In this document: piece after piece, positions 20,563-64,000 of the stretch
Numbering within the stretch: position 1 is the stretch's first letter
Layout: every line of letters starts with the position of its first letter
Source: Bacteriovoracaceae bacterium
GTDB taxonomy: Bacteria > Bdellovibrionota > Bacteriovoracia > Bacteriovoracales > Bacteriovoracaceae
NCBI GenBank assembly: GCA_044356225.1
Contig: JBIKWR010000001.1
Span: forward strand, 17,244-81,243
DNA: 64,000 bases
Direction of reading: 5' to 3'
The notes under the pieces: generated by a model
Told to the model about the DNA's origin: nothing
Seen by the model: the letters and a program-made list of their open reading frames with translations, nothing else
Database searches by the model: none
Program-made: the position numbers and the translations under genes

Positions 20563-23500
20563 CTACTGAACCTTAAATTGGCGAGAAAATTCCTCTAAAA
20601 AGAGGGCATCATTTTCTAGATTTGAAAGTCGATAATAAGCCGCCAGATCTAAGATTCTGGTACTCTCAGTGGCAGTTAACTCAGAAAGTTGATTAATCAT
20701 GGATTGTGATTCAACTAAGCGATTCATCTTTAACTGGGCGATGGTTGAAAGTCTTAAGGCCTCAGCTAACAGGTAACTCGATTGAAAATTTTGGGCCAAT
20801 GAATTTATCGCCTTTTCATATTCACCCAACTCCAAGTAGTACTGACCTAACAATAGATCAAAATAAGGTCCACAATCATTTTTTAGTTTGGCAGCACGAG
20901 AGAGAAGATCATTTTCATTAATTTTATCGGCCGATTTGGGATCAATATTGAGATTAATCAGGGTTTCATAACAAAAAGTGGTGTCATCTTTTAACGAAGC
21001 AGTCGTTTCCGCCAAAAGTTTTTGCGCCTCGATCCAATTTTTACTAATTAAATGTATTTGCAACATCGAATTGAGCGAGTAGGTGTCTGGATTTTTCTTC
21101 ATCGCCAGATTGAAGTAATAAAGTGCGCTGTGGTAGCGCTCTAGATTTTTAGTGGTTTCACCTAAATACTGGTAATCTTCTTCCGCTTGTTTTTGACGTT
21201 CAAAGTGGGCAAATTTTTGATAAAGCTTTTCGGTTTTTTGATAACTCAAATAGTGATTGATAATATTTTTATTAAAAGAATCTAAGGCCACCTTGTCTTC
21301 TTTTAAAGGACCTAGCAGAGTGCCAAAATTTCCTTTAAAACTTACATGAAAAAAGTTATCGACCCCTTGTTGAGCTTCATTATTATAATAAAGTTTTGAT
21401 TGCCTTACTTCAGCGTAGGCATTGTCGTCAGTGTTGATCACCGCGGATTCAATCAATGGCCAAACGTCTTCTCTGGTGAAGGCAAAATTTGAAAAAAAAC
21501 CTTCTTTCGATTCAATCGGTACCATTTGTAAAACATTTTTCCAGCGCTGGCCGCGTTTGAGTTTTTCAAACTGCTCATGGTTAAATTGCAGAGGTGAAGA
21601 TGACCCAAGCATGATCAGTTCGTCGTCGACGGAATCGGTGAAAACTGCACCATGAGGAAAGACTTCATAAAAAGATTTTAAAATACTTTTTAAGACAGTT
21701 TCATCCATATTGTAGAGATTGAGCCATTGAGCAAAAATTCCCTTTTGGTTAAGATTATTTTTAACAATTTTAAAAAAATCGATGGTAAAAAGATTCGCGA
21801 CCCCAGTCAGCCAACTATGACTTGGTTGAGAGACGACAAAATCATACTGTTGATCTTGCATAGAGTTTAATGAATAACGAGCATCTTCAATTTCAAGCTT
21901 GAGATTTTTACGTCTTAAAACGGGATTGGCCCCTTGATAGACATAATCAGCTGCTTCTAAAATTCCTTTTTCAAGTTCAACCACATGAACCATGGGAATT
22001 TGTAGATTAGTTAAAAGATCGACGGTGTAGCCTCCTCCATATCCTACGATATAGGCCTTTTGCGGTCGATCGCTAAAAAGATAAGGTAGTAAACCTAACA
22101 ACGCTTCATATTTGGGTAACACTTCCAGGGCATTTTGAAAGTAAACAGATTCATTGAGCCCATTGGTTTTAAGTCTTAAAATTTCTTGATAATTTTGCCC
22201 GTCATTTTTGTCATTACTCAAACTGATAATCGCCGTTTCACCCTCGCGGATCATTTTAAAATCTTCGTTTTCTTTTGAGAGCGCTTTTTTAACATCGGCA
22301 AAACTAGCAAAACTGTGACGGTAATTAAAATAAGCTGCTTTAATCACTTGATGAAAACGCACACTAGGGGCAAAGAGCATAATCAAAACTAAAACGACGG
22401 TCACTGCCGAATAATTTTTATTTAACTTGAGAGATTGCCAAAATGAGCTGGGCCCATCTTCTCTTAATCCCCAAACAATCATGACCACTAAACTAACTAT
22501 CAAAAAAAGCACCGCCATTAATATGGCGGCGGCAGAACCCCAAAGCGGTAGAATGATAATGCCCGTGATATAGGAGCCTAAAATTGACCCACAAGTATTA
22601 ATCGAATACGCTAGACCGACTTGCCACGAGGCCTTTTTTCCATCGACAGTTAAGGTGCTAATTGCCAGCGGAAGCAAGGATCCAAAAATGATGGTTGGCA
22701 ATGTTAATATCATGGTTGCCGCAATCGCCTTAACTGTTAATTGTCCAAGCTCGAAATTAAACATTTTAGAAACAAAAAAGGCGATGTAGGCCAGTTCATC
22801 TAACAAATAACTAGTCGCCATGACACTTAAAACATTTACCACTATTAACTGGGTCAAAAAGCGATACTTATTTTTCAAGCGATCAATAAAGACAGCAAGT
22901 ATAAAAGAACCAATCGCCATTCCAAAAAGATAAATCGCCAAAATTAATCCTAAACCATAAATATTAGTGCCAAAAAAGACTCCCAAATATTTATTCCACA
23001 CCACTTGGGCGGTGAGAGAGGCCATCCCACTGGCACCACAGGCGATTAAAATCGCTTTTGACTGGGTTGGCATTTTAACTTTGATAGAAATCGTTTTTTC
23101 TTCTGGGGATAAGGTCTTTTGAAGATCTTCATTCTCATTTTCATTCTCAGTGGTTTCTTTCGCTAAAATTAACTGGTGAATAATAACTGCCGCCACCATG
23201 ATGGCAAAATTAACTATCGCCATGGCAGTGTTGGCCTTAGAAATCCCCCATAAAGGAATAAGATGAAATCCCGATATAAATGCACCAATCGCCGCACCAA
23301 AAGTGTTGATCCCATAAAGAAGTGAAATAATTTTTCCGGTATTTTTTTTGTTACTTTGTAACTCTCGTCGAGAAAACAACTGAACGAGAATCGGAAGTGA
23401 TGCTCCCATACCCAAGGTAGGAGGTAACAAAAATAAAAAGACTAATCCAAACTTGATCATCAAGAAAAATGCTGAATCAGGAGTTACACTTAATAAATCG

Positions 23501-23808
23501 CAAACAGTTGAAAGAATCGTTTGAAAATTCAATAGTCCTTTGATCAGAAAAAAACTATACAGGCCAATCAGACCTTCTATCACCCCATAAAAAACTAAAG
23601 GTCTGTTAATCTTCTCAATATATTTACCGGCAAAAAAGCTACCTAAACTAAGCCCAAAAAAGAAAATAGAGAGAACCAAACTCATCGATGCAGAGGTGGA
23701 TCCAACTCCCAAGGCAATGACTCGAATCCAAAGAACTTCATAAACTAGACTGGTCAGTCCAGATAAAATAAAGAGCAAAGCAATCGGCAAAAGTTTAGAT
23801 ATTTTCAT
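20563..23808 (-). CDS. fused polytopic membrane domain / spermidine-synthase-like domain / TPR protein
   Basis: The first ~480 aa are many hydrophobic helices (MFS-like). The middle has a Rossmann-type GYGGGYTVDLL...VELEKGI...DFVVSQPSHSW segment resembling spermidine synthase-like proteins. The C-terminal ~250 aa are TPR-like helical repeats. Confidence 0.65.
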   Translation of the reverse strand: MKISKLLPIALLFILSGLTSLVYEVLWIRVIALGVGSTSASMSLVLSIFFFGLSLGSFFAGKYIEKINRPLVFYGVIEGLIGLYSFFLIKGLLNFQTILSTVCDLLSVTPDSAFFLMIKFGLVFLFLLPPTLGMGASLPILVQLFSRRELQSNKKNTGKIISLLYGINTFGAAIGAFISGFHLIPLWGISKANTAMAIVNFAIMVAAVIIHQLILAKETTENENENEDLQKTLSPEEKTISIKVKMPTQSKAILIACGASGMASLTAQVVWNKYLGVFFGTNIYGLGLILAIYLFGMAIGSFILAVFIDRLKNKYRFLTQLIVVNVLSVMATSYLLDELAYIAFFVSKMFNFELGQLTVKAIAATMILTLPTIIFGSLLPLAISTLTVDGKKASWQVGLAYSINTCGSILGSYITGIIILPLWGSAAAILMAVLFLIVSLVVMIVWGLREDGPSSFWQSLKLNKNYSAVTVVLVLIMLFAPSVRFHQVIKAAYFNYRHSFASFADVKKALSKENEDFKMIREGETAIISLSNDKNDGQNYQEILRLKTNGLNESVYFQNALEVLPKYEALLGLLPYLFSDRPQKAYIVGYGGGYTVDLLTNLQIPMVHVVELEKGILEAADYVYQGANPVLRRKNLKLEIEDARYSLNSMQDQQYDFVVSQPSHSWLTGVANLFTIDFFKIVKNNLNQKGIFAQWLNLYNMDETVLKSILKSFYEVFPHGAVFTDSVDDELIMLGSSSPLQFNHEQFEKLKRGQRWKNVLQMVPIESKEGFFSNFAFTREDVWPLIESAVINTDDNAYAEVRQSKLYYNNEAQQGVDNFFHVSFKGNFGTLLGPLKEDKVALDSFNKNIINHYLSYQKTEKLYQKFAHFERQKQAEEDYQYLGETTKNLERYHSALYYFNLAMKKNPDTYSLNSMLQIHLISKNWIEAQKLLAETTASLKDDTTFCYETLINLNIDPKSADKINENDLLSRAAKLKNDCGPYFDLLLGQYYLELGEYEKAINSLAQNFQSSYLLAEALRLSTIAQLKMNRLVESQSMINQLSELTATESTRILDLAAYYRLSNLENDALFLEEFSRQFKVQ

Positions 23809-23965: not shown

Positions 23966-26146
23966 TTACAATTGTGCAGGATTATCAAAGGCCATTCCCA
24001 TAGGCATAGGAACCGGTCTTGGAGGCATTGGTCCCGGACCCGGTGCTGGAGCTGGCATTGGTCTTGGCGGCAACGGCATTGGTGCTGGGGCCGGAGCTGG
24101 ATCTGGCATCGGTCTTGGTGGCAACGGCATTGGTGCTGGAGCTGGACCCGGTGCTGGTGATGGCATCGGTCTTGGCGGCAACGGCATTGGTGCTGGAGCT
24201 GGACCAGGTGCTGGTGCTGGATCTGGCATCGGTCTTGGCGGCAACGGCATTGGTGCTGGAGCTGGACCAGGTGCTGGTGCTGGATCTGGCATCGGTCTTG
24301 GTGGCAACGGCATTGGTGCTGGAGCTGGACCAGGTGCTGGTGCTGGATCTGGCATCGGTCTTGGTGGCAACGGCATTGGCCCTGGTCCTGGCATCGGCCC
24401 TGGTCCTGGCATCGGCCCTGGTCCTGGTATCGGCCCTGGTCCTGGCATCGGCCCTGGTCCTGGCATCGGCCCTGGTCCTGGCATCGGCCCTGGTCCTGGC
24501 ATTGGCCCTGGTCCTGGCATCGGCCCTGGTCCTGGCATCGGTCCTGGTCCTGGCATCGGTCCTGGTCCTGGCATCGGTCCGGGTCCTGGCATCGGTCCGG
24601 GAAATGGCATCGGCATTGGAGCTGGCCCTGGTCCTGGATTTGGCAATGGCATTGGAGTTGGTCTCATCGGCATAGGAAACGGCATTGGATATGTAGGCGG
24701 CACCGGAATTGGGCGCATTGGCCATGGCATCGGCTTCCAAGGAACTGGAACTGGTTTGTAGTGAGGAACACAACCGCCATAGTTAGGAGAGTAGTGTGAT
24801 CCAGGTCCGCATAATTTATTTTTATGATATTGGCCATGGTACCAGTTATTGTTGTTCCAAACACACTGGCCTAAAACCCAAGACCAACTTTGGCCAACTC
24901 CACAATAACCATTTTGATGATTGGCAATACATCCACCATGGTAAGCACTGTAATGAGTGCCTGGCGAACAGTAATTATACCATTGAGTGGGCCGACAAGT
25001 GAGATCTAAACCACCCCACCAACTCCAACCAACTTTACAACCAGAGTAGCTTGGTAAACAGCTTCCAGAATAATGATCATAGTATGTACCTGAGTAACAT
25101 TTTTTAGCACCCCACCATACACATTTGTCTATGACCCATGAATACTTCGTTCCCACCGGGCAAAAATTGGCATTTGGTCGGCAACGGTTACTCCAAGGAT
25201 CAAAGGTCCAGTTAAAAGGACATCGCTGATAAGTGTTTTTAATACATTCATAAGTGAAATGATCGTAACTATATCCAACTGGACAATAATTATAAGGATG
25301 AGATGGATAATTAACACAGCGATTTAACTGGTTATCGTAAAACTGACCAGCAGGACAAAATTTTCCTGAGTTTGGTTTACAAAATCCATGGAGATCATCG
25401 TAATAATATCCAGGAGCACAAGCATAGTCGTTATTGTTTTCTTCTAATACAGTAACTTCAAATTGTTTAAAAGTTTGATTTCCCCATTCATCTGTCGCAC
25501 TCACGACAAACTGATTTGAACCAGTTTCGATAGGGTAACCAGAAATAGAGAATGAATTTTCATAAACATCAGTGCGAACTTCAAGCCCTAAGGGAGCATT
25601 TCCCGAAACTAACTCACCATTAAAAAAAGTGCTATTAGACGGTAATCCTACCTCGATGGTTTCATCATAATACTGTTGTAATCTTGCTACTTTTAACTCG
25701 CGAAAATCGTTGAATTGATAATGATCTATTTGCTCGCTATTTTCAGAATATAAACAGAATCGTTCGGCGGTTGATCGCTCGCCACTATTATCATAAACAG
25801 TTGCTCTTAAAACAAAACACCAAGAACCAACAAAGGCCGGAGTTCCAAACAAAGTCGCATAAGCGCTTGAACCGTTTGCTAGATCGAGACCCGCTGGTAG
25901 ATCATCTTGATGAATATCCCAATCCACTCTTGCCGAAGAAAGAGCTCCTCGAAGTGAAAATTCCAATTCAGAATATTCACCATACTTAACAACTAGGTCA
26001 TCTGCTTGACTAACAATTTGCAGTTGACGGTCTAAAGTGTCGTTGTCGTAATCTGAATCTCCCCATTGGGCGAAGGCCGGAGCAATAATCAGACTACAAC
26101 ACAGAAATGTTAGCATCCACCAGTAATTCCAAATGCGTTTTTTCAT
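23966..26146 (-). CDS. secreted modular protein: two Ig-like (He_PIG-type) domains, Cys-hairpin repeats, proline-rich repeat tail
   Basis: Signal peptide, then LPAGLDL..GTPAFVGSW and APLGLEV..ISGYPIETGSNQF segments. About ten C-P-x-G-x-x-Y-x(5-7)-C units follow, then (MPGPGP)n and (PAPAPMPLPPRPMPDPAPAPG)n. GAGG lies 4 nt upstream of the ATG. Confidence 0.8.
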   Translation of the reverse strand: MKKRIWNYWWMLTFLCCSLIIAPAFAQWGDSDYDNDTLDRQLQIVSQADDLVVKYGEYSELEFSLRGALSSARVDWDIHQDDLPAGLDLANGSSAYATLFGTPAFVGSWCFVLRATVYDNSGERSTAERFCLYSENSEQIDHYQFNDFRELKVARLQQYYDETIEVGLPSNSTFFNGELVSGNAPLGLEVRTDVYENSFSISGYPIETGSNQFVVSATDEWGNQTFKQFEVTVLEENNNDYACAPGYYYDDLHGFCKPNSGKFCPAGQFYDNQLNRCVNYPSHPYNYCPVGYSYDHFTYECIKNTYQRCPFNWTFDPWSNRCRPNANFCPVGTKYSWVIDKCVWWGAKKCYSGTYYDHYSGSCLPSYSGCKVGWSWWGGLDLTCRPTQWYNYCSPGTHYSAYHGGCIANHQNGYCGVGQSWSWVLGQCVWNNNNWYHGQYHKNKLCGPGSHYSPNYGGCVPHYKPVPVPWKPMPWPMRPIPVPPTYPMPFPMPMRPTPMPLPNPGPGPAPMPMPFPGPMPGPGPMPGPGPMPGPGPMPGPGPMPGPGPMPGPGPMPGPGPMPGPGPMPGPGPIPGPGPMPGPGPMPGPGPMPLPPRPMPDPAPAPGPAPAPMPLPPRPMPDPAPAPGPAPAPMPLPPRPMPDPAPAPGPAPAPMPLPPRPMPSPAPGPAPAPMPLPPRPMPDPAPAPAPMPLPPRPMPAPAPGPGPMPPRPVPMPMGMAFDNPAQL
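24040..24377 (-). repeat. imperfect tandem repeat, 51-63 bp unit, about 6 copies (coding)
   Basis: The GGCAACGGCATTGG anchor recurs at 24069, 24120, 24177, 24240, 24303 and 24366. It encodes the 17-21-aa PAPAPMPLPPRPMPDPAPAPG unit. Confidence 0.9.
24378..24611 (-). repeat. 18-bp tandem repeat GGCCCTGGTCCTGGCATC, about 12-13 copies (coding)
   Basis: Head-to-tail units start at 24378 with only synonymous-type variation (GGTCCT/GGCCCT, ATC/ATT). They encode (MPGPGP)n. Confidence 0.9.
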
Positions 26147-49275: not shown

Positions 49276-49464
49276 CTCATAGACCTCTTTTTCATTTTAT
49301 AACTTCTTTAAATGTTTGATAGATAAATAGTAAAATAGTAGGTTTATTTATCTAAAACGTTCAAGAGATTGCATGGAAATAAGTGGGACTGAAAATGAGT
49401 TATTGAAAGTATTAAGTAGATCGATAAACAGAAACTAAATTCTCTAAATTCTAGTGAGGAAAAT

Positions 49465-49581
49465 ATGAAAAAGTTAAAAAAATCTCGTAATAAGATCAAA
49501 AAAACCAAAAATGCTAAGAGCAAACTAAAGTTGCGCAGACTTGCGAGAAAAAGAAAGTTGCTAAAAAATCACGGTGCCTAA
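49465..49581 (+). CDS. small highly basic protein (38 aa), hypothetical
   Basis: Found manually; it is below the track cutoff. GAGGA lies 5 nt upstream of the ATG. Product is MKKLKKSRNKIKKTKNAKSKLKLRRLARKRKLLKNHGA. A 10-bp-stem hairpin follows. Confidence 0.35.
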   Translation: MKKLKKSRNKIKKTKNAKSKLKLRRLARKRKLLKNHGA

Positions 49582-49636
49582 CATCTTCTAACAATCACCT
49601 TTGATGTCTTTTTAATCAATTTTAAATTTTGATTAC

Positions 49637-49661
49637 GAAATGGGCCGTAGTGGCCCATTTC
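49637..49661 (+). terminator. hairpin downstream of the 38-aa ORF
   Basis: GAAATGGGCC-GTAGT-GGCCCATTTC forms a perfect 10-bp stem. There is no strong U-tract, so the role (terminator or leader structure) is uncertain. Confidence 0.4.
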
Positions 49662-49672
49662 AGCGTCTTTGT

Positions 49673-49688
49673 TCGCAATATATAGGGT
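49673..49688 (+). promoter_or_regulatory. NrdR box 1 (distal)
   Basis: TCGCAATATATAGGGT compared with the published NrdR-box consensus acaCwAtATaTwGtgt. It is followed immediately by TTGACA. Confidence 0.55.
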
Positions 49689-49714
49689 TATTGACAAAAA
49701 AATGACGGCCAAAA

Positions 49715-49730
49715 ACACAATATATAGTGT
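49715..49730 (+). promoter_or_regulatory. NrdR box 2 (proximal)
   Basis: ACACAATATATAGTGT matches the NrdR-box consensus at essentially every specified position. It overlaps a TTGACG -35-like hexamer and lies 115 bp upstream of the nrdJ start. Confidence 0.7.
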
Positions 49731-49844
49731 TGACGAATTCCTGAGAGTAGAAAATCATGAATGCACACCATTCATTTTGTATAAAAATGAAATTTTTTTA
49801 ACCAAATATTTTTTTAGAGACGAACTCAAGCAAGGAGCAGCTAA

Positions 49845-53604: not shown

Positions 53605-54087
53605 TTATTTTTTATGGATCATCTTGGCCAATCGTTTTCTTGATTGCACTCTTTTTTGAGCATTTTTAAAACGCCGAATTTCATCTTTTGATTTAACTAA
53701 AATTCCTGGGACTTTCGCGGGTTTACGATTTTCATCCAGACAAACAAAAGTGAGATAAGCACTGGTGGTAATTTGAGTTTCACCGGTGGTAGGATCCTCA
53801 CTTTGAACTTTGACTCCCACTTCTAAAGAAGTTTGGCCAACATAATTGACCATCGCCTTAATCAACACGTGATCGCCCATTTTTACTGGCGCTTTAAAAC
53901 TTAGTTCATCCACGTGCACGGTCACCACGGGAGCTCGGCAATGCCTGGCCGCGGCCATCGCTGCGGCAATATCCACCCAGGCCATAATTTGGCCACCGAA
54001 AATTGTACCTTGGGGGTTGGTGTGGTTGGGCATAACCAGCTCGCGCATTTCTACCGCCGAGTCACGAGGGGATTTTTTACTTTTCAT
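53605..54087 (-). CDS. acyl-CoA thioesterase (hotdog fold, YciA-like)
   Basis: VMPNHTNPQGTIFGGQIMAWVDIAA is typical of the family. The protein is 160 aa with a basic tail. Confidence 0.85.
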   Translation of the reverse strand: MKSKKSPRDSAVEMRELVMPNHTNPQGTIFGGQIMAWVDIAAAMAAARHCRAPVVTVHVDELSFKAPVKMGDHVLIKAMVNYVGQTSLEVGVKVQSEDPTTGETQITTSAYLTFVCLDENRKPAKVPGILVKSKDEIRRFKNAQKRVQSRKRLAKMIHKK

Positions 54088-54947
54088 CTGAAAGTCCTTT
54101 GATGAATTCGTTTTTGTAACAGCTCTTTAAACCAAAAAATAAACCAAAAAATGATAAAAAAGAAAAAATAGCTCAAGGCGAGGGTTGCCCCTGGTGGAAG
54201 ATTATGCCAGTTGGCCAAGAATAAACCCACCACCGCCGCTCCCAAAGAAAAGAGGATGGAGTACCAAAAGGTTTGATAAATATTTTGGGCGTATTTAATG
54301 GCAAAAGCGCCGGGAATAATCAAAAGAGCATTAATTAAAATGGTGCCTGCCAGTTTCATGGAGCAAACAATTAAAAAGGCCAAGGCAAAAATAAGCAGAA
54401 AATGATAACGAACCACGGGAATGCCATTCACTTGCGCCCCTACTTCATCATAAACAAAAAATAGTATTTTTCTAAAATTGAGACTGATGATCAAAAAGAC
54501 CAGCAGACATAAGAAGAGCTGAAAAACTAAATCAAAAAGGGTCAAAGTGAGGATATTGCCAAAAAGAATGCTCATCATTTGTGATTGGCCAGCAGGGGAT
54601 AAGGAAAAAAGAATAATGCCAGAAGATAATGTCCCCACCAAAAAAATGCCGATCACCGCATCGCTGGGAATTTTTTGTTTGAGAGTCCCATAGGCCAAAA
54701 AAAGAGAAATGATTAAGGTAAAAAGCAGGCCGGAGAGAAAAATATTCTGCGGCGATTGGATCTGCCAAACACCAACGGTCAAGGCCATGGCGAGCACTGT
54801 ACTATGAGAAATGCCTTCGCCAATAAAGGCATATTTTTTGGCCACTAAGATGGGACTGATCAGACCACAAGTTAAGGCCAAGAGAATCGCTCCCACGAGT
54901 GCTTTGGCCAAAAAGTCATAATGAATAAAATCACTAAAAAATTCCAC
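54084..54947 (-). CDS. metal (Zn/Mn-type) ABC transporter permease, ABC-3 family
   Basis: 287 aa, polytopic (about 8-9 hydrophobic helices). It sits immediately downstream of the matching ATPase and binding protein. Confidence 0.8.
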   Translation of the reverse strand: MEFFSDFIHYDFLAKALVGAILLALTCGLISPILVAKKYAFIGEGISHSTVLAMALTVGVWQIQSPQNIFLSGLLFTLIISLFLAYGTLKQKIPSDAVIGIFLVGTLSSGIILFSLSPAGQSQMMSILFGNILTLTLFDLVFQLFLCLLVFLIISLNFRKILFFVYDEVGAQVNGIPVVRYHFLLIFALAFLIVCSMKLAGTILINALLIIPGAFAIKYAQNIYQTFWYSILFSLGAAVVGLFLANWHNLPPGATLALSYFFFFIIFWFIFWFKELLQKRIHQRTFR

Positions 54948-54949
54948 GT

Positions 54950-55759
54950 TTACGCTTTTCCTTGGTTGTTAGTAGCAGTTTTTGGGTGAAGATGATGATC
55001 ACCTTGATGCTGGCACTCTTGATGGTGGTGATCCAAAGAGTCCATTTTGGGAGTGGTATGATGGATCAGTAAGTGTTCAAACTCACAGTGATAAATTTCT
55101 TCTAGAACATCTTTGGTGAGTAGCTCTTTTTGGTTATGCCAATGGAGCGTTTTATTCAAGCAAATTAGTTTGTCGGAATAGGGAATGATATGTGCCAAGT
55201 TGTGATCCACAATCGCCAACGATGTTTGAAACTGTTTTTTTAATTTATTCAGGAGAAAAAAAAGTTGATCTTGGCCCTTGGAATCAAGGCCATTACTGGG
55301 TTCGTCTAATAAAAGCATTTGCGGTTGTTGACCAATCGCTCGACCAATCAGCACTCGCTGTTTTTCTCCACCCGACAAATGCCTCACTTGCTCATTTTCT
55401 TTTCCTGCCATGCCAATCAAGTCTAAAACTTCTGCCACCGGCAGAACTTGACGAGGATTAAGTCGCAGCACTTCTTGCACGGTTAAGGGGAGTAAATGAT
55501 TAAGGGATTCTTGTTGAGGAACGTAGGCGAGGAGACCTAGTTTTTGAAAACTGGCAAGCTTTGCCTGCTGCTGATCGATCAGGATTTCCCCTTCCGTAGG
55601 AGTGATCAGACCGGCCAAAATTTTGAGCAAGGTGGTTTTTCCGCCGCCATTGGGGCCCACGATGCCAATGGTTTCACCTTGATTAATCGTAAAACTGATA
55701 TTTTTGAGGATGGGTGTTTTTTGATAAAAAAAACCCACAGACTTAAGCTCTAAAATCAT
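54950..55759 (-). CDS. metal ABC transporter ATP-binding protein with His-rich C-terminal tail
   Basis: Walker A GPNGGGKTT, signature LSGGEKQR and Walker B LLLDEP. The tail is HHTTPKMDSLDHHHQECQHQGDHHLHPK. Confidence 0.9.
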   Translation of the reverse strand: MILELKSVGFFYQKTPILKNISFTINQGETIGIVGPNGGGKTTLLKILAGLITPTEGEILIDQQQAKLASFQKLGLLAYVPQQESLNHLLPLTVQEVLRLNPRQVLPVAEVLDLIGMAGKENEQVRHLSGGEKQRVLIGRAIGQQPQMLLLDEPSNGLDSKGQDQLFFLLNKLKKQFQTSLAIVDHNLAHIIPYSDKLICLNKTLHWHNQKELLTKDVLEEIYHCEFEHLLIHHTTPKMDSLDHHHQECQHQGDHHLHPKTATNNQGKA

Positions 55760-55762
55760 GAT

Positions 55763-56590
55763 TTATTTTAGCTCATTCACAGCGTTGATCAAACTTTTTA
55801 ATGGCGAAGTCCAATCTTTACCTGCGGGAATGAACACCGGATTCCAATGAATAACGTAATCTTGTGGGCGTCGGTGTTTTAAGAGGTGTTGATCCAAAGG
55901 CTTAAATTGGCCTTCGATGATAAAAAGCACTTTAGATTTTTGGTCTTGTAATAAATTTTGCAACTCCTTGGCCGCTTTGGTCTTCATTTCATCATGATGA
56001 TGGCCACTTCTAAGTGCCAAGGTTTTTAAACCGGCATTTCGAAAATAACTGAGAACAGTATCGTGAGAGGAGACCACCGCGGTGAAAGGGAAATTTTTTT
56101 GGGTGTAAAAGGCCTTTTCAGCTAAACTAAAATCCGTTTCAAAAGGGCAGGGAGTTTTTAAGTCGCGATTAAAATACGTGGTAAAATGCTGCTGGATTTG
56201 CTGGTCGATTAAACATGCCGCTTCGGCAGACAACCAAAAGTGCGGATTGAGGTTTTTAGGTAAGGTTAAAGTCAAAACTTTTTTAGGGTAAAGTTTAATT
56301 AACTGTTTTCCCCATTCTAAAGCTTCGATCGGGCCAAGAATAATTAGATCGGCCTTCATTAAAGCTTTAATCATATCAGGTGTGAGTTCAAAATCGTGCA
56401 AGTCTTGATCGGTTTGCACTAAAGACTCCACCTCAAACTTGACAATTTTTTTAACTAAAATCTGATGCACTCGATGGGCCAAGATAGGGGAGCTAGTTTT
56501 AATCGTCAGTTGACTAAAATCCACTTCTGCTCGAGCACTTTGCATGAGGGAAAAAAACCACAGAACAAAATGGAGCAAATAAAATTTCAT
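55763..56590 (-). CDS. periplasmic metal-binding protein (TroA/ZnuA cluster A-I like)
   Basis: Signal peptide, about 275 aa, short HHHDE patch. The call is supported by operon context with the ABC-3 permease and ATPase. Confidence 0.7.
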   Translation of the reverse strand: MKFYLLHFVLWFFSLMQSARAEVDFSQLTIKTSSPILAHRVHQILVKKIVKFEVESLVQTDQDLHDFELTPDMIKALMKADLIILGPIEALEWGKQLIKLYPKKVLTLTLPKNLNPHFWLSAEAACLIDQQIQQHFTTYFNRDLKTPCPFETDFSLAEKAFYTQKNFPFTAVVSSHDTVLSYFRNAGLKTLALRSGHHHDEMKTKAAKELQNLLQDQKSKVLFIIEGQFKPLDQHLLKHRRPQDYVIHWNPVFIPAGKDWTSPLKSLINAVNELK

Positions 56591-56628: not shown

Positions 56629-59600
56629 CTACTGACAGTAAAGGTGGTGATTCCAGCGATACCCATTTTGAAATTGGTTAAAACCGCGTGGGTTGTCGGG
56701 GTCAGTGTCATCATCAATATCTTCAGGACTATCGAGAAGGCCATAGACCCGGGTGAGCGATCCATCGGATGATCCAAATGAACCACTGTTCGGCTGGCCT
56801 GGATAATGGCCAAAAGCACCCCCAGCAATCACCGTGCCCGAACTACAGAAGGCCTCGCCTATATTGCGAATTTTATTTCTCACTGTATCGTTGTAAAGCG
56901 GCTCACCGGTCATGGAGTTAAAATCAGTTTCGATTAAACCACCACCTGGGAGATCCTCATCAATGCCTTCACCCGAGATAAATTTATTAAAATAAACATG
57001 CAGATCAAGCCCCGATGGCATCATGCAAGTGATTTCGCCAGTGCTGATATCGGCGACACCGTGGTTAGAGCAGCACTTGGTTTGATCGGTGACGATCGAG
57101 CCAATAGGCGCGCAGCAACTGAATTCGCTGGCGGAGAATATTTTATCCAGCGCCACTCCATCCACATAGCTCACTTGATTGCGCGAACCAACCGTTTCGG
57201 CGACGGTTTTAGTGTTATCATAAAACGCTGCGGGAGTGAGAGGAGCATTGGCATCTGCCGAACCCGTGGTGTAGTTAAAAGAAGGAGCACCAGCAATAAA
57301 AGTGGTCCAGTCAGCATCGTTGAGGAAAATTCCACCCACCATATTGCCTTGTTCATCGTTACAAGAAATTGGTTCGTAGAGAATTTGCGGGACACCGATG
57401 AGTTCAAGGCGGCCAAGTTTGGAGAGGTAATAAAATTCATTGCCCGGAGTGAGACCGACTTCTGGATCAGCGGCGACTGAACCACTATGACCAATCACGT
57501 TGTTGGGAATAAAATTTATTCTCACTGCCGCCTGATCAAGACTTCCTAGTCCTGGATTATGTTTGACATAGAGAATACCAGTCGCGGTGTCGTAACATTC
57601 AGAATTAACCGCCGCACCCACCATATTAGCGGTACAAGGCATCGCTACATTGGCCACCGCCGTGATCGTAGTGAAACTGCCATTGGTGAGGTAATTGACA
57701 ATATCGATATCAAAACTGGCCTCCAGCGGATCGATGTAGCCGGGTAATTTAAAAGCGATGTAGTCGTCATTAACCGTTCCAAAAGTAAAGTCTGATTGTA
57801 AAAGTGCACCCACCGCCGAGACAAAACGAGTTAACGGAGCAAAGGGCGTGTACTCGGTGAGGTTATCAAAAGGAATTTCAGTATAGGAATCAATCGTGGC
57901 CGTAAAGGTTGCTGGTCGAACCGGATAAATAATGCTGTTAGTGGTGCCTGGGGTGAACGCAAATTGTGGGCAACCACCAAACTCCACAAAAAAGCACATA
58001 TTACTAAAATCGATATCGTAATTGGATTGTAAAGTTCCAGCGGGTTTTTCCTTATAAATAGTATGGCGATAATTTACACACTGAAATTCTGAAACATCTA
58101 AATTGAGGCGAGTGTTATTGGTCCAATCATGGGTCCCATCGGCAAATTGTCTGACCCATCCTCCACCGCAACAGGTTTTTTCACCAGCGCGTTTAAAAGT
58201 CAGCCATTGAAAAGGTAGCGGCACTTCGCCGGCGTCAAATTCCGGAGCTTGAGGACGAACAGCAACGGTGGCGATCGCGACATTTAAATCTTCCACTACC
58301 GCATAACGAGAGTAGCGACGAGCAGTCATCGGGTTGTCCGCCAAAAAAGGTAAGTCGGTAACTCCCACACGTGCCAGTTGGCCAGAAGGATCGCCTTCTG
58401 GATCATTGGCGGTGATCATCGTAAATTTTTGGCCTTGAGCGCGGCAACAGCGATTTTCACTGATATCAAAGTCGGCAAAGAGCACGGAATTAAGAGCTGG
58501 TACCGGATTTTGTTGGCCACATATCATCGACTCTTGCCAATAATTTTTTTCAGCAGTGGAACCACCAAAAAAAGATGTGGCAAATTGCGCAGCGGTGGTG
58601 GCGTGAAGAGCATTGGGAGAACAATCCAAATCGGAATGACAAACTGCTCCTGGTCGCCTGAAACATGCGTCTTGGACTATTGAAGGAGTGACGATCGAGC
58701 TGAATGTACCAATGGCATTTTTTTCGATGTTAACAAAGGCCGACGTTCCACCTGCATTTTTAGCTCCCGCTCCACAAGTATTTTGCAATCTTAATTGTTG
58801 TTGATCGGCGGCACTGGTGAAGGTTGGGGTGGTGATAAAAGTATAATCGCCAGAAGTGGGATCGAGCATGGGACAAGACTGCACGCGGTTAAGGCCAGTA
58901 GTGGCGCTATTACAACTGCCCACCTGACTAATGTAATCGGTGCGGTTTTGATTGTCGCGATTAGCATGCTGTGTTTCCATGTGCGGATTAGCATTGGTGT
59001 CGATAAATTTTCCCGGTTGGCAAATTCCATAATCGTCATCGGTGGCAAAACTACTATGCTGATTATCGAGATTGGCCTCTAAAGTTGAGATAACGGCATT
59101 AGGTAAACTGACGCTGCCATTAAGATATTTTTCCGGTCGGCCTAAAACATTTGCCTCTTTACCAAAAAGTATATTGTCGGCTAATAAAGGAGTGCGAATG
59201 ATTTCGTCGTTAAAAGATTGAGTAATTTTTTTACACCAAAAATTAGGAGCACAAGTAAAATTTTTGCGTATGCTAAGAGGAAGGGCAGAGTAGTTTTGTT
59301 TACATACAGAACCCGATCCGCGGTAGACACATCGTTTTTTGGTAGTGGCCTTCAGTCCACCGACAATGATCTTACTGAGAAATTTTGAATCAGCGGTATT
59401 CACATTTTCATCTTCATCGGTAAATGTCGGCCATAGTGTTTTGACACTATTAATGTTGGCGCACATGTACTCCCAACCCAGCTTTGTCACACAATCGGTA
59501 TCGTCATCACACAAGTGATACTGCTGGCAACTAGCACCTTGATTTTGACTAGGGTTGTTCATCGTCAAGTCAGGATCAAAGTCATACTTGGCGACCGTAT

Positions 59601-61707
59601 CATTGGAGTTCGTCAGAGAAATGGTGACATTGGTAGAAGTTTGATCCGCCAAATCGCCCATGACTCCATTGATTGCTAAATACAGTTTGTCACTTTTGGC
59701 CGTTACTCGTCTGCCGGAACCGATGGCAAACCAGCTGACACCATCAAAAGATCCAATCAGAGCGCCTTTATTAAAACCAAACCAATCGCGCTGATACCCA
59801 TTGATCCAAAGGGCGGCTTGAGTTTGCAGACGATTGAGTCTTTGAGTTTGCCCATCGGCATTGGCAGTATGAGAAAAAGGTAACATGGTCGGTGGCACGA
59901 AGCAGGCACGACCAAAAAGGGTATCTTCATAATTTCCTAAAGTGAGGTTAGTGGAAAAAGCATCTCTGGATGTCGTGTGCCCGACTGCTTGCAATCCTCG
60001 GCCCGCCGAAGAATTGGGATGGGCGCTGAAGGCCTGAAACCAGGAGTCTTTACTACAGAGAGGACAGGGAGAATAGAATCCGGAGTTAACAAAGATGGTG
60101 TAGTTTTCATTGTCGTTAACGGGTATCATCTTTGCCGGAAAGGCCTGATCGAGTGTCACGGAAAATTGGCCGGTGATGGAGTTCATATTAAATTGGCCAT
60201 TGTCGGGATCGGTTTTATTGAGGTTATCGAGGTATTGAAACTCTGTGCCTTCAGGTATTACACCCGTGCCGGCAATGGAGGTGATGTTATCGACTGCCAG
60301 ACCATTGGTGGCGCGAAAAAAACGATGGGGCACCGATCGGGCAGAAACATCCACAAAAGTGGTGGAGAAGGGAGGATCGGTATCACTATTCAAATTATCA
60401 CAAGCCACGGCAGTGATTTTTCCCGCCGGATTTTTACTCGCATGAAAAATAAAAGTATCTTGGCAAGCGAGTGTCGGATCACCACTGGGAGGATTGCTAG
60501 GATCACAACCACACATTTTATTAACAATGGTTTGGACTTGCGCCTCAGTGACGCCAGTACCCGCCACATCACAAGAGATACTTTGAATGCCGGCACCCAA
60601 CAGCCAACGTTCCGCTTGCGTGTCGTAGGTCGGGAGGTTGGTGATGGTATTGGGACACAAATTTTCGGTTTCATTTTGGCAGGTGTAGGAGTTATCACAG
60701 TACTCACTAAAACCTTCTTCACAAAGTTGATCTGTCAAACAGTAGTAATAATTAATTTTGGTTTGCAATAATTCTTTAGCGTCTTGGGTAGGATCATTGG
60801 GATTTGACGGAGGAGGGTTGAGACCACCAGTGCCACAGACATTATAAATATGAGGATAATTCACATAGGCCAAGGGATTGATGGCAATGTCCGCCTGAGA
60901 TTGAGCAAAGTCATTCGGATACAAGCTCGAGGCATTGGATTTGAGCACTCCATCGTTGACACAATTATTGTTTAAACAACAATCAAAACCCAACGTTTGG
61001 CAGGAGGAATTGGTGCATAAACCTTGACCGCCATTATTTTGTGAGGAAGCGGTGTCAATGTTAAGTCCAAGCCCACTGAGGTTAAACAAGTTATTGGAGA
61101 CCAATGTATTATCACTAATGCCAGAACTCACTTGATAAATTTTTACCGAGGTGGATTTGATAATGGTGTTACAAGTGGTGCAAACCTCATCGAGAGCAAA
61201 AGCACTGCCGGCCATCGCTACTCCACTAACCGTACCAGTGCAGACGGAAGCATTACTGGCATTTTGATCTAGATCGATGCGAAAATATCGTTCAATGGAT
61301 TGAGTGCTAAAGTTATTAAAAAAGGCGGGAGTGGCGCGCACTCTCATTTGGGTTTTTGCCCCAGTGGCAGCATACGTGGCCAAAAGACAAAAAGTTTTTT
61401 GGAAATTGTTATTTAAATTTAGAAAGGTCTCGACCGCCTTACCTCGTAAAAAAACCACGCTGTTTAAATCTTCATTGACGGTGAGAGCATTAAAAATTTG
61501 CTGACTATTATGAAACCAAAACAGCTGACTGGTGTTCGTCCCCGCGCCATCATTTAAACCACTGGTATTGTCCTGGGTAATGCGGCGATTACTTTCAGTT
61601 TGAATTGGCAGGCAACTAGTCAAGGACAACAAGGCCCACAAGCTAAAACTGAAAAGTAAAAACTGATACTTGATCAAATGTGTTGCCTCGTAAGTTTGAG
61701 TATGCAT
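56629..61707 (-). CDS. giant Cys-rich lipoprotein, unknown function (1692 aa)
   Basis: Lipobox LLSLTSC. Composition is N/T/G/S/D-rich and looks beta-rich. By hand count there are about 57 Cys, including five CC doublets. I recognise no catalytic motif. Confidence 0.8.
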   Translation of the reverse strand: MHTQTYEATHLIKYQFLLFSFSLWALLSLTSCLPIQTESNRRITQDNTSGLNDGAGTNTSQLFWFHNSQQIFNALTVNEDLNSVVFLRGKAVETFLNLNNNFQKTFCLLATYAATGAKTQMRVRATPAFFNNFSTQSIERYFRIDLDQNASNASVCTGTVSGVAMAGSAFALDEVCTTCNTIIKSTSVKIYQVSSGISDNTLVSNNLFNLSGLGLNIDTASSQNNGGQGLCTNSSCQTLGFDCCLNNNCVNDGVLKSNASSLYPNDFAQSQADIAINPLAYVNYPHIYNVCGTGGLNPPPSNPNDPTQDAKELLQTKINYYYCLTDQLCEEGFSEYCDNSYTCQNETENLCPNTITNLPTYDTQAERWLLGAGIQSISCDVAGTGVTEAQVQTIVNKMCGCDPSNPPSGDPTLACQDTFIFHASKNPAGKITAVACDNLNSDTDPPFSTTFVDVSARSVPHRFFRATNGLAVDNITSIAGTGVIPEGTEFQYLDNLNKTDPDNGQFNMNSITGQFSVTLDQAFPAKMIPVNDNENYTIFVNSGFYSPCPLCSKDSWFQAFSAHPNSSAGRGLQAVGHTTSRDAFSTNLTLGNYEDTLFGRACFVPPTMLPFSHTANADGQTQRLNRLQTQAALWINGYQRDWFGFNKGALIGSFDGVSWFAIGSGRRVTAKSDKLYLAINGVMGDLADQTSTNVTISLTNSNDTVAKYDFDPDLTMNNPSQNQGASCQQYHLCDDDTDCVTKLGWEYMCANINSVKTLWPTFTDEDENVNTADSKFLSKIIVGGLKATTKKRCVYRGSGSVCKQNYSALPLSIRKNFTCAPNFWCKKITQSFNDEIIRTPLLADNILFGKEANVLGRPEKYLNGSVSLPNAVISTLEANLDNQHSSFATDDDYGICQPGKFIDTNANPHMETQHANRDNQNRTDYISQVGSCNSATTGLNRVQSCPMLDPTSGDYTFITTPTFTSAADQQQLRLQNTCGAGAKNAGGTSAFVNIEKNAIGTFSSIVTPSIVQDACFRRPGAVCHSDLDCSPNALHATTAAQFATSFFGGSTAEKNYWQESMICGQQNPVPALNSVLFADFDISENRCCRAQGQKFTMITANDPEGDPSGQLARVGVTDLPFLADNPMTARRYSRYAVVEDLNVAIATVAVRPQAPEFDAGEVPLPFQWLTFKRAGEKTCCGGGWVRQFADGTHDWTNNTRLNLDVSEFQCVNYRHTIYKEKPAGTLQSNYDIDFSNMCFFVEFGGCPQFAFTPGTTNSIIYPVRPATFTATIDSYTEIPFDNLTEYTPFAPLTRFVSAVGALLQSDFTFGTVNDDYIAFKLPGYIDPLEASFDIDIVNYLTNGSFTTITAVANVAMPCTANMVGAAVNSECYDTATGILYVKHNPGLGSLDQAAVRINFIPNNVIGHSGSVAADPEVGLTPGNEFYYLSKLGRLELIGVPQILYEPISCNDEQGNMVGGIFLNDADWTTFIAGAPSFNYTTGSADANAPLTPAAFYDNTKTVAETVGSRNQVSYVDGVALDKIFSASEFSCCAPIGSIVTDQTKCCSNHGVADISTGEITCMMPSGLDLHVYFNKFISGEGIDEDLPGGGLIETDFNSMTGEPLYNDTVRNKIRNIGEAFCSSGTVIAGGAFGHYPGQPNSGSFGSSDGSLTRVYGLLDSPEDIDDDTDPDNPRGFNQFQNGYRWNHHLYCQ

Positions 61708-61788
61708 TCTCTTCTCGACGGCGCGTGAGAAGTTGGGAATTAAAATTGGAGATGAATGAAAAAGCGGAAATATTTTCCGCTTAAAAGC

Positions 61789-64000
61789 TTAGGCCCTGGG
61801 TGGACTAAAATCAAATCCGCTATCGGCGACCGAGGTCCCATTGAGCATGGAAGACTGAACTCCGAAGGGATTTTGACTGCCAAACTGCCAATTAAGCGGC
61901 GGCGGAGTATAAGGAAAGATATTCGAATTGGGTTGAGCAAAATATAAACTGGCATAGGTCGCAGGATCTTTTTCTTTATAATAATCAAGGGTGTAATCCC
62001 AAGCGGCCCGATTATAAACATCTACTTCTTTTAATTTTTTATAATAACTGGTATTTCGATCTGTTTGCACTTTTAGATAATCAGTTTGTTGATAAGTCGT
62101 CAGTAGCGGGACAATTTGCCCCACTAACGGTGCCACGAGGTAGCTGCCAAAACTAGCTTCTTCGCGCCAAACTGGGCGGTAAGGATTGGTGTAATCCACA
62201 TAATGACTGCGGTGATAGGCCAGCTGCTTTTCTTTCGCTTCGCTGGCATATTTTGCTTTTTTAGACACCGTGGTGCTGGGAACATCTTCATAAATTCGAA
62301 CATTACACTGGTCTTTGATACCTTTGAGTAATTGATCGCGCGTACCCATGTGACGCTCAAAAAAATCTGGCTCAAATTTGGCGAGTATTTGATTGCCATC
62401 GCTGGCGAGGGCAAAGGCCATATAATCAGCGGGTTTTGACTGATAAGTTTTATCAAATCCTTCACAGCGAACGGCCGTGTGTGCAACAAACTTATCAGCG
62501 CATTCACTTTTGATAAAACCACCGATGGCATTTTTACAACTTTCAAATTTTTTAAACTCTTGGGTTTTTTCCATTTGTTTAATGGCATTTGTGAGAGTGC
62601 GCAAACGTTCCTTAGAACGAATAATCGCTCTGGGCACATCATCTGTTGTGAGAAGGCCAGTACATGCTTGGAAGGCAGTTCTTACTTCCGTTGTAGTGGG
62701 ATTGCCCGCGGGCATTTGGCATGCAGATTTAGGCCCGAGATTTTTTTCCGGGAAAAGATTTGGCAACGCCTGTAATAATTTGGGATATAGGGCCTGAACC
62801 ACTTGTTCGTAATTTTTGATTCGCGATTTCGGATCTGAAGTTAATTCAAGTGTTGCTTTCTCAGCAAAAATCTTTTGATTTTTTTCCAGAGAGGCCAATT
62901 TTCGGTCAACGTCTTGTTGCTGCACACCCAATTCACTTAAGGCCACGCCATTGTTAGGACGATCAGCAAGATAGCGTGCACGATCAACCAATCTTTTTTC
63001 TTCTCGTTTTAAACGTTGTGATTCGATTAAAGAAAGTTGAGCAATATTGGGTGCTAAATTTTCTAAGTTTTGTAAAATAGCTGCTTCCGCAGTGACAAAT
63101 TCTCTTTGTTTGATTCGATTAAGAAGAAATTCATCTCGGTTATCGGCCGCAGTATGATTGGCGAGATTAATTTGCACCGACAATTCATCCACCGAACGCA
63201 AAATGGGAGCAATTCCAAATTTAAAAAAAAGATCATTTTTTTGTGTTTCACCAAGACTAAAGTCGGCAAAAACATTTTCCAGTTCTATTTTTTTAATGGT
63301 TAACGCTTGATAGGTTTCTAAACATTGCGAAGAGGCGGTTAGATCGGCAGTGGTTTGAAAACATGGTTTATTTTTTTCTTCTTCTAAAAAACGATTCATG
63401 GCGATGAGTTTTTGAGAAATTTTTTCTCGCAATTGAGGGCCTAAAGGATAATCGGTCATTTCTTTTTTTAGCAATCGATCAAAGTCGGCTATTTGTAGAT
63501 CAGTGCCTCGGGCCGCCATACTTTGATAAGCGCGGACAAAACTTCCAAAAGCGTGGTACTCGGAACTTTGATCATTTTGGCCACTATTTAAATCGGATGT
63601 TTCAGATCGAAAAATTTGGAGTTGGAGACAAAAGGAGTCAAGAGTTCTATTTAGTTCATCGCATTTTTTGATCAGTAAATCAGTAATAGCAGCTCCTGAT
63701 AATTGCGCAAAAATTTCATCCGGAGTAATTCCTAAATTTTGTAATGGATTGTTTGATTCTTCCGATTTCAAATAATGATCAATGCCATTGAGAAGTTGCA
63801 CACTGCTGGTCGCATTTTTTATATTAAAGGCGAGGAGTGCACTATCGACCGGTCGAACATCATCCAAGCTCATGACGGCCTCTAAATCGGTGACCACTTT
63901 TCCTTGGAGCGATTCAATCCCTTGAAGCATCGCCAGCTTGGCCACTTCTTGATCATACTCTAAGGCCAATTGAGAAAAAGGAGTATTATTGTGGCGATGA
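61789..64000 (-). CDS. large helical paired-Cys protein, N-terminus beyond the right window edge
   Basis: The track starts it at TTG 63969, but the frame stays open (..HRHNNTPFSQ-LALEYDQ..) to position 63999, so it is 5'-truncated by the window. Its composition and C-x(12-20)-C modules resemble the 7265..14458 protein. Confidence 0.75.
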   Translation of the reverse strand, partial: HRHNNTPFSQLALEYDQEVAKLAMLQGIESLQGKVVTDLEAVMSLDDVRPVDSALLAFNIKNATSSVQLLNGIDHYLKSEESNNPLQNLGITPDEIFAQLSGAAITDLLIKKCDELNRTLDSFCLQLQIFRSETSDLNSGQNDQSSEYHAFGSFVRAYQSMAARGTDLQIADFDRLLKKEMTDYPLGPQLREKISQKLIAMNRFLEEEKNKPCFQTTADLTASSQCLETYQALTIKKIELENVFADFSLGETQKNDLFFKFGIAPILRSVDELSVQINLANHTAADNRDEFLLNRIKQREFVTAEAAILQNLENLAPNIAQLSLIESQRLKREEKRLVDRARYLADRPNNGVALSELGVQQQDVDRKLASLEKNQKIFAEKATLELTSDPKSRIKNYEQVVQALYPKLLQALPNLFPEKNLGPKSACQMPAGNPTTTEVRTAFQACTGLLTTDDVPRAIIRSKERLRTLTNAIKQMEKTQEFKKFESCKNAIGGFIKSECADKFVAHTAVRCEGFDKTYQSKPADYMAFALASDGNQILAKFEPDFFERHMGTRDQLLKGIKDQCNVRIYEDVPSTTVSKKAKYASEAKEKQLAYHRSHYVDYTNPYRPVWREEASFGSYLVAPLVGQIVPLLTTYQQTDYLKVQTDRNTSYYKKLKEVDVYNRAAWDYTLDYYKEKDPATYASLYFAQPNSNIFPYTPPPLNWQFGSQNPFGVQSSMLNGTSVADSGFDFSPPRA

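Follow-up and report, generated by a model that had tools for sequence, protein, structure and literature searches.

In the chlamydiae, the 60 kDa protein OmcB and the lipoprotein OmcA belong to a cysteine-rich outer-membrane complex whose disulfides give the envelope rigidity and resistance. In Myxococcus xanthus, the adhesin of the gliding machinery is CglB, a cysteine-rich outer-membrane lipoprotein of about 400 residues with a von Willebrand A (VWA) domain that carries a metal-ion-dependent adhesion site (MIDAS). The Bacteriovoracia (Halobacteriovorax, Bacteriovorax and Peredibacter) are abundant bacteria that prey on Gram-negative species; much less is known of their molecular biology than of that of Bdellovibrio. 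Phyla that have received little study commonly contain orphan envelope proteins. Here, a stretch of 64,000 nucleotides from a Bacteriovoracaceae bacterium (contig JBIKWR010000001.1, positions 17,244 to 81,243; referred to below as the window) was analysed for an open reading frame (ORF) at 56629-61707 on its minus strand, which encodes a 1692-residue cysteine-rich protein with the features of a lipoprotein precursor. Sequence comparison firmly indicates that this lipoprotein is a conserved, vertically inherited component of the class Bacteriovoracia with a conserved partner gene, and among the libraries searched it is, equally firmly, related to no described family or solved fold.

The lipoprotein resembles OmcA and OmcB in that all are Gram-negative envelope proteins with many conserved cysteines and a lineage-restricted distribution, and OmcA is likewise a lipoprotein. 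There is no sequence relationship, however, as no OMP3 or OMP6 Pfam match was obtained for the window protein (E ≤ 1) or for 23 aligned members of its family. The lipoprotein is also three times larger and non-repetitive, its cysteine parity suggests intramolecular disulfides, and the lifestyle of the organism is different. With CglB it shares a high cysteine content, a probable place among the outer-membrane lipoproteins, the association with partner proteins and an origin in a related group of predatory or gliding bacteria, but neither a VWA domain nor the DxSxS motif of the MIDAS was found in it by Pfam and motif scanning, and no gliding genes lie nearby. The dense and conserved spacing of its cysteines, which includes C-x5-C-x5-C-x9-C and CxDxDC-like motifs at residues 733-739 and 1023-1029, recalls the bacterial cysteine-rich repeat modules (myxococcal cysteine-rich repeat, DUF4215-type and EGF/LDL-A-like), but the 23 members gave no such Pfam or NCBIfam match at E ≤ 1 and the protein contains a single short internal repeat. 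As in LpoA, LpoB and RcsF-type lipoproteins, the lipid anchor is followed by a disordered S/T-rich linker before the folded part; those proteins are small, not cysteine-rich and unrelated in sequence, whereas the 180 kDa body of the present lipoprotein is too big for the pores of peptidoglycan. The family and its fold lie outside everything described in the libraries searched, and only analogies are available.

The ORF begins with ATG and ends with a stop codon at 56629-56631; translation of the plus strand across 56629-61707 gave dense stop codons. The gene and its signal peptide are as follows.

56629..61707, minus strand: lipoprotein ORF, complete, with full-length homologues at 27-41% identity
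61612..61707, minus strand: lipoprotein signal peptide, residues 1-32, with lipobox LTSC and Cys32

The original prediction, made from the letters of the sequence, had described a lipobox followed by a very long N/T/G/S/D-rich polypeptide with about 57 cysteines, an even number of them after the lipidated one. A script count gave exactly 57 (3.37% of residues, against a mean of 1.11% in the other 40 ORFs of the window), of which 56 remain after Cys32, and a composition biased to T/N/A/S/G/D. The five CC doublets quoted there (FDCCLNNNC, NRCCRAQG, KTCCGGGW, FSCCAPIG and TKCCSNHG) were all located, at residues 243, 1087, 1179, 1531 and 1545, as were both tight cysteine clusters, CQQYHLCDDDTDCVTKLGWEYMC at residues 727-749 and CFRRPGAVCHSDLDC at residues 1015-1029. 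The lipobox was likewise borne out: the N-terminus has a positively charged n-region (K13), a hydrophobic h-region (residues 15-28) and the sequence L29-T30-S31-C32, which follows the pattern [LVI][ASTVI][GAS]C. The features of a lipoprotein precursor are thereby firmly assigned from sequence. Cleavage at Cys32 would leave a mature protein of 1660 residues and about 180 kDa with a predicted isoelectric point of 4.6. Of 73 complete genomic homologues, 71 have a lipobox-like cysteine, as do about 138 of 150 database members, and the equivalent of Cys32 is conserved in 98% of the 226 members aligned across the family. The residue at position +2 is V, L, M, I or T and that at +3 is mostly Pro. Asp is found at +2 in none of the family members, and by the sorting rule of E. 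coli the lipoprotein would therefore probably be placed in the outer membrane.

Relatives were recovered by three methods. A word-index protein search gave 22 full-length relatives (1627-1984 residues, 27-41% identity), none with a Pfam domain, and a second such search with the full profile added no members; the yield was small because the prefilter of 8,000 candidates filled up, presumably with chance word matches to unrelated proteins. An exhaustive HMMER scan of 1.84 billion representatives with a profile of the core (residues 440-1250) gave 375 proteins, and for 266 the E-value was 1e-30 or lower; the 150 top-scoring of the 375 were all family members and nearly all full-length (1,600-2,150 residues), a few being truncated. 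A pattern scan of one genome per GTDB species gave 343 relatives. When the 126-residue hyperconserved core was used alone, only short fragments from the family itself were returned. Pfam and NCBIfam searches of the lipoprotein gave no match even at E ≤ 1 and therefore no described family to which it could be assigned; with no significant match to PDB profiles or by Foldseek either, the statement in the original prediction that no family or fold could be recognised held. The public name of the family proteins is 'hypothetical protein' throughout. Literature searches found no paper on the family; two Critical Assessment of Structure Prediction (CASP) highlight papers that were retrieved concern unrelated Bdellovibrio proteins (Bd0675 and a cyclic-nucleotide binder) and were set aside.

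Genome-level statistics on the lipoprotein loci were taken from the best 80 of the 343 genomic matches. Their records are labelled Bacteriovoracaceae, Halobacteriovoraceae, Bacteriovorax, Halobacteriovorax, Peredibacter, 'Bdellovibrionales' or Oligoflexia, or are evidently mislabelled metagenome-assembled genomes (MAGs), and the carriers include the isolates Peredibacter sp. HCB2-198, Halobacteriovorax marinus and Halobacteriovorax sp. CON-3. All 80 homologues are single ORFs across the whole match (73 complete, seven cut by contig ends). Interruption or pseudogenization of the gene in relatives, which was looked for here, was seen in none of them, and the comparison firmly supports a real and intact gene at 56629-61707. 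The family has two clades, which we take to be paralogues within Bacteriovoracaceae genomes because the clade-2 member P0021 and the clade-1 locus L038 occur in one MAG assembly. Each locus examined has a single syntenic copy; the ancient paralogue occurs as well in at least one of these genomes. A paralogue search within the window found none, only the first-clade type being present there.

Two loci of the divergent clade (L081, 8001-12995; L083, 8001-13013) encode paralogues with about 29% identity and an insertion of about 120 residues after residues 343-357. They adjoin cinA, a gene for an HI0933-like flavoprotein and bipA, elsewhere in the same genomes, and downstream of them lie genes for secreted proteins of about 1,000 residues with 22-24 cysteines and for lipoproteins of about 860 residues.

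Cysteine is by far the most conserved residue of the lipoprotein. In the 23-sequence alignment 41 of the 57 cysteines are invariant (72%), the next residue type being Arg at 24%. The original prediction had suggested an alignment of orthologues to examine the cysteine positions; in the 226-sequence alignment of both clades, 45 of the 57 are at least 95% conserved, including all the CC, CxxC and CxC motifs. Where cysteines vary, they tend to do so together: C932 and C978 occur in exactly the same 175 sequences (175/175/175), the presence of C1210 and C1449 correlates at r = 0.93 and that of C1238 and C1246 at r = 0.83, and several cysteines within insertions also come in pairs. Of 150 database members, 138 have an even raw count after the lipid-bearing cysteine; nine of the 12 odd counts come from a wrongly picked lipobox cysteine, which leaves about 147 of 150 even and about three real exceptions. 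Among complete genomic ORFs the count is even in 66 of 71. An even cysteine number is accepted as a mark of exported proteins that contain disulfides (PMC2823432, PMC7678975). The lipoprotein has the sequence properties of a substrate of the Dsb system (an even mature cysteine number, conserved positions and paired gain or loss), and from these three properties we infer that essentially all 56 mature cysteines would form about 28 disulfides in an extracytoplasmic protein. Because the parity is even, the disulfides are suggested to be intramolecular rather than intermolecular.

The second conserved element is a short segment within the folded part of the protein.

59653..59925, minus strand: hyperconserved segment, residues 595-685; of its 91 positions, 33 reach at least 95% identity in the 226 members from the two paralogue clades

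Its consensus is GRAC.VPPTM...QR.NRL..Q....NGYQRDWYGF..G.LIGSFDG.WF.IG..R.....L.LA.N....D, and the conserved residues include D595, R600, T607, H613, Q622, R623, R626, Q630, N636, Y638, D641, W642, S653, W659, R666, N680 and D685. Over the lipoprotein as a whole, conservation of at least 95% in the 226 members is reached by 12 of 51 Arg but by none of 49 Lys; the conserved Arg outside the segment are 792, 796, 838, 857, 1017, 1089, 1134 and 1186. His makes up 1.4% of residues and only two of 24 are conserved. These patterns make residues 595-685 a candidate site for ligand binding or catalysis, and the ligand may be anionic.

Known motifs were looked for in the lipoprotein. HExxH and GGxGxD are absent, and no RGD, MIDAS or repeats-in-toxin (RTX) motif was found. 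The single serine hydrolase motif GxSxG (residue 1645) was rejected, being conserved in only 1-25% of members at fixed positions. A thioredoxin-fold oxidoreductase was also considered on account of the invariant C548-P-L-C551 and was rejected, as there is no thioredoxin or DsbA family match and no Foldseek match.

Structure prediction in segments had been suggested with the original prediction. Two overlapping models were built with AlphaFold2 (AF2) on the 23-sequence alignment: model 1 (residues 33-1130) has a mean predicted local distance difference test score (pLDDT) of 66.6 and a predicted template-modelling score of 0.57, and model 2 (residues 720-1692) has values of 61.7 and 0.67, respectively. 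Together with the alignments they give the following map of the mature protein, within which the hyperconserved segment lies in the α/β core.

61528..61611, minus strand: tether after the lipid-bearing cysteine, residues 33-60, probably disordered (pLDDT 24-37), S/T/G/N-rich and of variable length in homologues
61048..61524, minus strand: β-sandwich-like N-terminal domain, residues ~62-220 (AF2 strands, pLDDT 70-90)
60835..61017, minus strand: small cysteine-dense module, residues 231-291 (C231, C236, CC243/244, C249 and C291; consensus GFDCCLDGQCVNDG)
60358..60810, minus strand: variable region, residues ~300-450 (conservation 0.18-0.24, low pLDDT)
58408..60360, minus strand: conserved α/β core, residues ~450-1100 (pLDDT mostly 76-92 for residues ~600-1090)
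57508..57960, minus strand: variable, weakly immunoglobulin (Ig)-like β region, residues ~1250-1400 (conservation 0.17-0.18, pLDDT 50-65)
56632..57450, minus strand: conserved C-terminal domain, residues ~1420-1692 (pLDDT 81-93 at residues ~1524-1630)

All six cysteines of the small module are at least 99% conserved in the 226 sequences. In the variable region that follows, Cys 329, 337 and 379 are specific to the window protein, Cys 343 is common to 27% of members and the paralogue clade has its insertion of about 120 residues. The α/β core contains the invariant CPxC (C548/C551) and cysteine clusters at residues 727-749, 793-825 and 1015-1088. The C-terminal domain carries CC1531/1532, CC1545/1546, C1561 and C1621 and has a conserved end, RWNHH.YC, with a pLDDT of 84-90 at the C-terminus. 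At E ≤ 0.001, Foldseek matched neither model to a PDB structure, nor model 1 to a BFVD structure; the best-ranked, non-significant matches were generic Ig-like sandwiches, and the Ig-domain matches for residues ~1250-1400 were likewise only non-significant. The best PDB sequence-profile match, influenza haemagglutinin (E = 0.12), was treated as noise. Profile-profile comparison of 120-residue segments found a single short internal similarity, a cysteine module (residues ~789-828 with ~1011-1038, about 80% probability), so the lipoprotein is not a repeat array. Some orthologues (P0004, P0006-P0009 and P0072) have a 288-residue β-propeller-like insertion after residue 159 of the window protein (near window position 61231), in a loop of the N-terminal domain; the window protein itself lacks it. 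The insertion gave Reg_prop, BNR, Sortilin and PorZ signals, mostly sub-threshold, in P0004, P0009 and P0072; Pfam searches of all 23 aligned members gave only sub-threshold Sortilin and PorZ signals, confined to this accessory insertion.

The lipoprotein gene is preceded by a co-directional gene, the partner, and the two are separated in the window by a short spacer.

61789..64000, minus strand: partner gene, 3' 737 codons, the 5' end lying beyond the window; protein with about 10-14 cysteines; upstream homologues occur in related loci
61762..61782, minus strand: terminator-like hairpin, a 9-bp stem then TTTCATTCAT, directly 3' of the partner stop codon

A co-directional homologous ORF, mostly of 640-830 residues, lies upstream of the lipoprotein in 64 of 67 loci with enough flank, which upholds the pairing with the upstream gene proposed in the original prediction. 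Fifty of these ORFs form one BLAST cluster, and the window ORF matches their profile with E = 3.6e-17. Because the match spans profile positions 48-643 of 646, the window partner is about 780-840 residues long, and not the helical 'giant' that had been supposed. The partner proteins, secreted and helical as judged from sequence, have a type I signal peptide, 8-16 cysteines, a few of them nearly invariant, and an L/A/K/E/Q-rich composition with helical periodicity. A similarity to apolipoprotein A-I (E of about 0.02) was treated as compositional; the amphipathic periodicity (1.28) is only slightly higher than in an unrelated control (1.21). The partner evolves very fast: mean column identity in its alignment is 17%, with the cysteines as the main anchors. 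At its C-terminus there is a Y/G/P/S/T-rich low-complexity tail that often ends in [GS][FY][ND]F (GFNFG, GFDFS or YFNF; loci L001-L078), and the tail of the window partner (61792-61900, minus strand) ends in ...DSGFDFSPPRA. This terminal motif may serve in docking or sorting. In the window, 81 nucleotides separate the partner and lipoprotein genes, against a median of about 210 elsewhere. A terminator-like hairpin at the matching site was found in only four of 58 related loci, and the hairpin was ruled out as a conserved operon feature. The partner profile gave no match in the paralogue loci L081 and L083, the secreted proteins and lipoproteins encoded beside the paralogues included.

On its downstream side the lipoprotein gene is followed by transporter genes, taken here as genomic context.

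54084..56590, minus strand: ZnuA-like binding protein, ATP-binding cassette (ABC) ATPase and ABC-3 permease genes, downstream and co-directional

Only 38 nucleotides separate the lipoprotein stop from these genes, with no terminator-like site between. In the 80 loci, the direct downstream neighbour is the ZnuA-like/ABC/ABC-3 transporter in 27-31 and a 4HBT thioesterase in 41. Upstream of the partner in Peredibacter and H. marinus lie dus, a HAD hydrolase gene and ffh, and a class II ribonucleotide reductase gene is near the lipoprotein locus. From gene order, the locus reads as a conserved housekeeping block: ffh - HAD - dus - partner - lipoprotein - [znuABC-like] - 4HBT - nrdJ. In the window, a 570-nt spacer (49276-49844) lies upstream of the gene for the class II (B12-dependent) ribonucleotide reductase. 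Rfam and tRNA scans of the window gave no matches, and because there was no Rfam match at the gathering threshold, no cobalamin riboswitch is recognisable in this spacer.

Taken together, we tentatively favour, at somewhat less than even confidence, a conserved, disulfide-stapled envelope component whose invariant core binds or processes a conserved envelope ligand together with the partner. The precursor would be cleaved at Cys32 to an acidic mature lipoprotein of about 180 kDa and sorted to the outer membrane, and periplasmic oxidation would pair the 56 remaining cysteines in about 28 disulfides within the chain. Through these crosslinks the non-repetitive, multi-domain α/β architecture would become a rigid body that resists proteases, attached by a flexible tether of about 30 residues. 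The Arg/Asp/aromatic-rich core (residues 595-685 together with the conserved Arg) would bind, and possibly process, an invariant and probably anionic envelope ligand, the lipoprotein acting jointly with the secreted helical protein encoded immediately upstream.

Several points weigh against this proposal. The proposed mechanism is deduced from anatomy, the homologues all being named hypothetical proteins. With mean pLDDT values of 62-67, the AF2 models deserve only moderate confidence. Outer-membrane sorting is based on the +2 rule of E. coli, which may not apply in Bdellovibrionota. The link to the partner comes from synteny only, and in the window a terminator-like hairpin stands between the two genes. 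The near-invariant core could be catalytic rather than a binding site. Some orthologues carry the β-propeller-like insertion and the protein has variable regions, a pattern that is typical of surface ligand-binding proteins too and so leaves room for an adhesin role.

That role is taken up by the first alternative, which develops the two-component surface structure suggested in the original prediction: the lipoprotein would be surface-exposed and, with its helical partner, would form a prey-contact or invasion apparatus that attaches the predator to prey or helps to breach the prey envelope. The restriction of the family to obligate predators among the best 80 of the 343 genomic matches is consistent with such an apparatus, as are the large size, acidity and N/T/S/G-rich composition of an extracytoplasmic protein with a flexible tether, the β-propeller-like module inserted in some orthologues and the very fast evolution of the partner, which is expected for exposed proteins; disulfide stapling would also shield the protein against the predator's own hydrolases. 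Against this, no known adhesin motif or domain was found, the housekeeping neighbourhood is without pilus, gliding or secretion genes and the family has one syntenic copy and one ancient paralogue. A variable adhesin in particular is disfavoured because of the fixed architecture, the single-copy syntenic position and the near-invariant core. Overall, a direct part in prey contact appears improbable.

In a second alternative, to which we assign a similarly low likelihood, the lipoprotein is a novel extracytoplasmic enzyme, the invariant polar cluster of its core (D595, R600, H613, R623, R626, N636, D641, S653, R666, N680 and D685) being the active site for a predator or prey envelope polymer such as a glycan, peptidoglycan or a lipid head group, and the disulfide-rich remainder a stabilizing scaffold. 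A segment with 33 of 91 positions at least 95% identical, in proteins that share just 27-40% of their residues over the full length, is what catalytic centres typically show; the core is confidently modelled as an α/β fold and predators are generally rich in lineage-specific hydrolases. There is, however, no enzyme-family match by sequence or fold and no canonical catalytic motif, and 1,660 residues with 28 disulfides would be an unusually large frame for a single active site.

Metal handling, in which the lipoprotein would bind or buffer zinc or other thiophilic metals and be coupled to the ZnuA/ABC-3 transporter, is very unlikely. The conserved CxxC, CxC and CC motifs and the transporter genes, which are co-directional 38 nucleotides downstream with no terminator-like site between and directly downstream in 27-31 of 80 loci, speak in its favour. 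It is disfavoured because the cysteine parity is even and cysteines are gained and lost in pairs, which points to disulfides and not to thiolate ligands; periplasmic thiols are normally oxidized by the Dsb system. Further, His is scarce (1.4%, two of 24 conserved), and about 60% of loci lack an adjacent transporter and have the 4HBT thioesterase directly next instead. A chance ORF, decaying pseudogene or assembly artefact is refuted by the full-length homologues in hundreds of genomes, the uninterrupted copies (73 complete and seven contig-truncated) and the strong position-specific conservation.

Elsewhere in the window, four further ORFs were recorded. A 2397-residue ORF at 7265-14458 (plus strand) has a signal-peptide-like N-terminus and no Pfam match at E ≤ 0.001 and is a large orphan secreted protein. 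A 726-residue secreted protein at 23966-26146 (minus strand) contains 24 cysteines (3.3%) in short repeated modules, followed by about 250 residues of proline-rich tandem repeats (PGPGPMP and PLPPRPMPDPAPAPGPAPAPM units), and gave only marginal CBM_14 and He_PIG matches. The ORF at 1585-3330 (minus strand) encodes a 581-residue protein with a Peptidase_C25 (gingipain-like cysteine protease) domain (E = 1.8e-39), and that at 20563-23808 (minus strand) encodes a 1081-residue fusion in which a polytopic membrane region (weak MFS_1) is joined to a spermidine-synthase-like domain and to a C-terminal part that is helical.

For the Bacteriovoracia, the lipoprotein is a strong candidate for a lineage-defining envelope function, because it is a 180 kDa protein that is intact in every locus examined, keeps nearly all of its cysteines and is unrelated to known families and folds. 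If it does contain about 28 disulfides, it would to our knowledge be among the most disulfide-rich single bacterial polypeptides and a case of extreme oxidative folding, and so many disulfides in one chain raise the question of how the Dsb machinery of these bacteria copes. The near-invariant 91-residue core is a precise target for mutagenesis, and the lipoprotein-partner gene pair is a clean marker for the class. More speculatively, and in our estimation rather doubtfully, the pair could be a previously unrecognised, predator-specific envelope apparatus across the Bacteriovoracia, with new folds, about 28 disulfides and a core with a new binding or catalytic activity that is needed for predation; candidate activities are the handling of prey-derived envelope material and the protection of the predator's own envelope during attack. 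If a predation-related function is true, the lipoprotein would be a component that is absent from current models, which are built mostly on Bdellovibrio.

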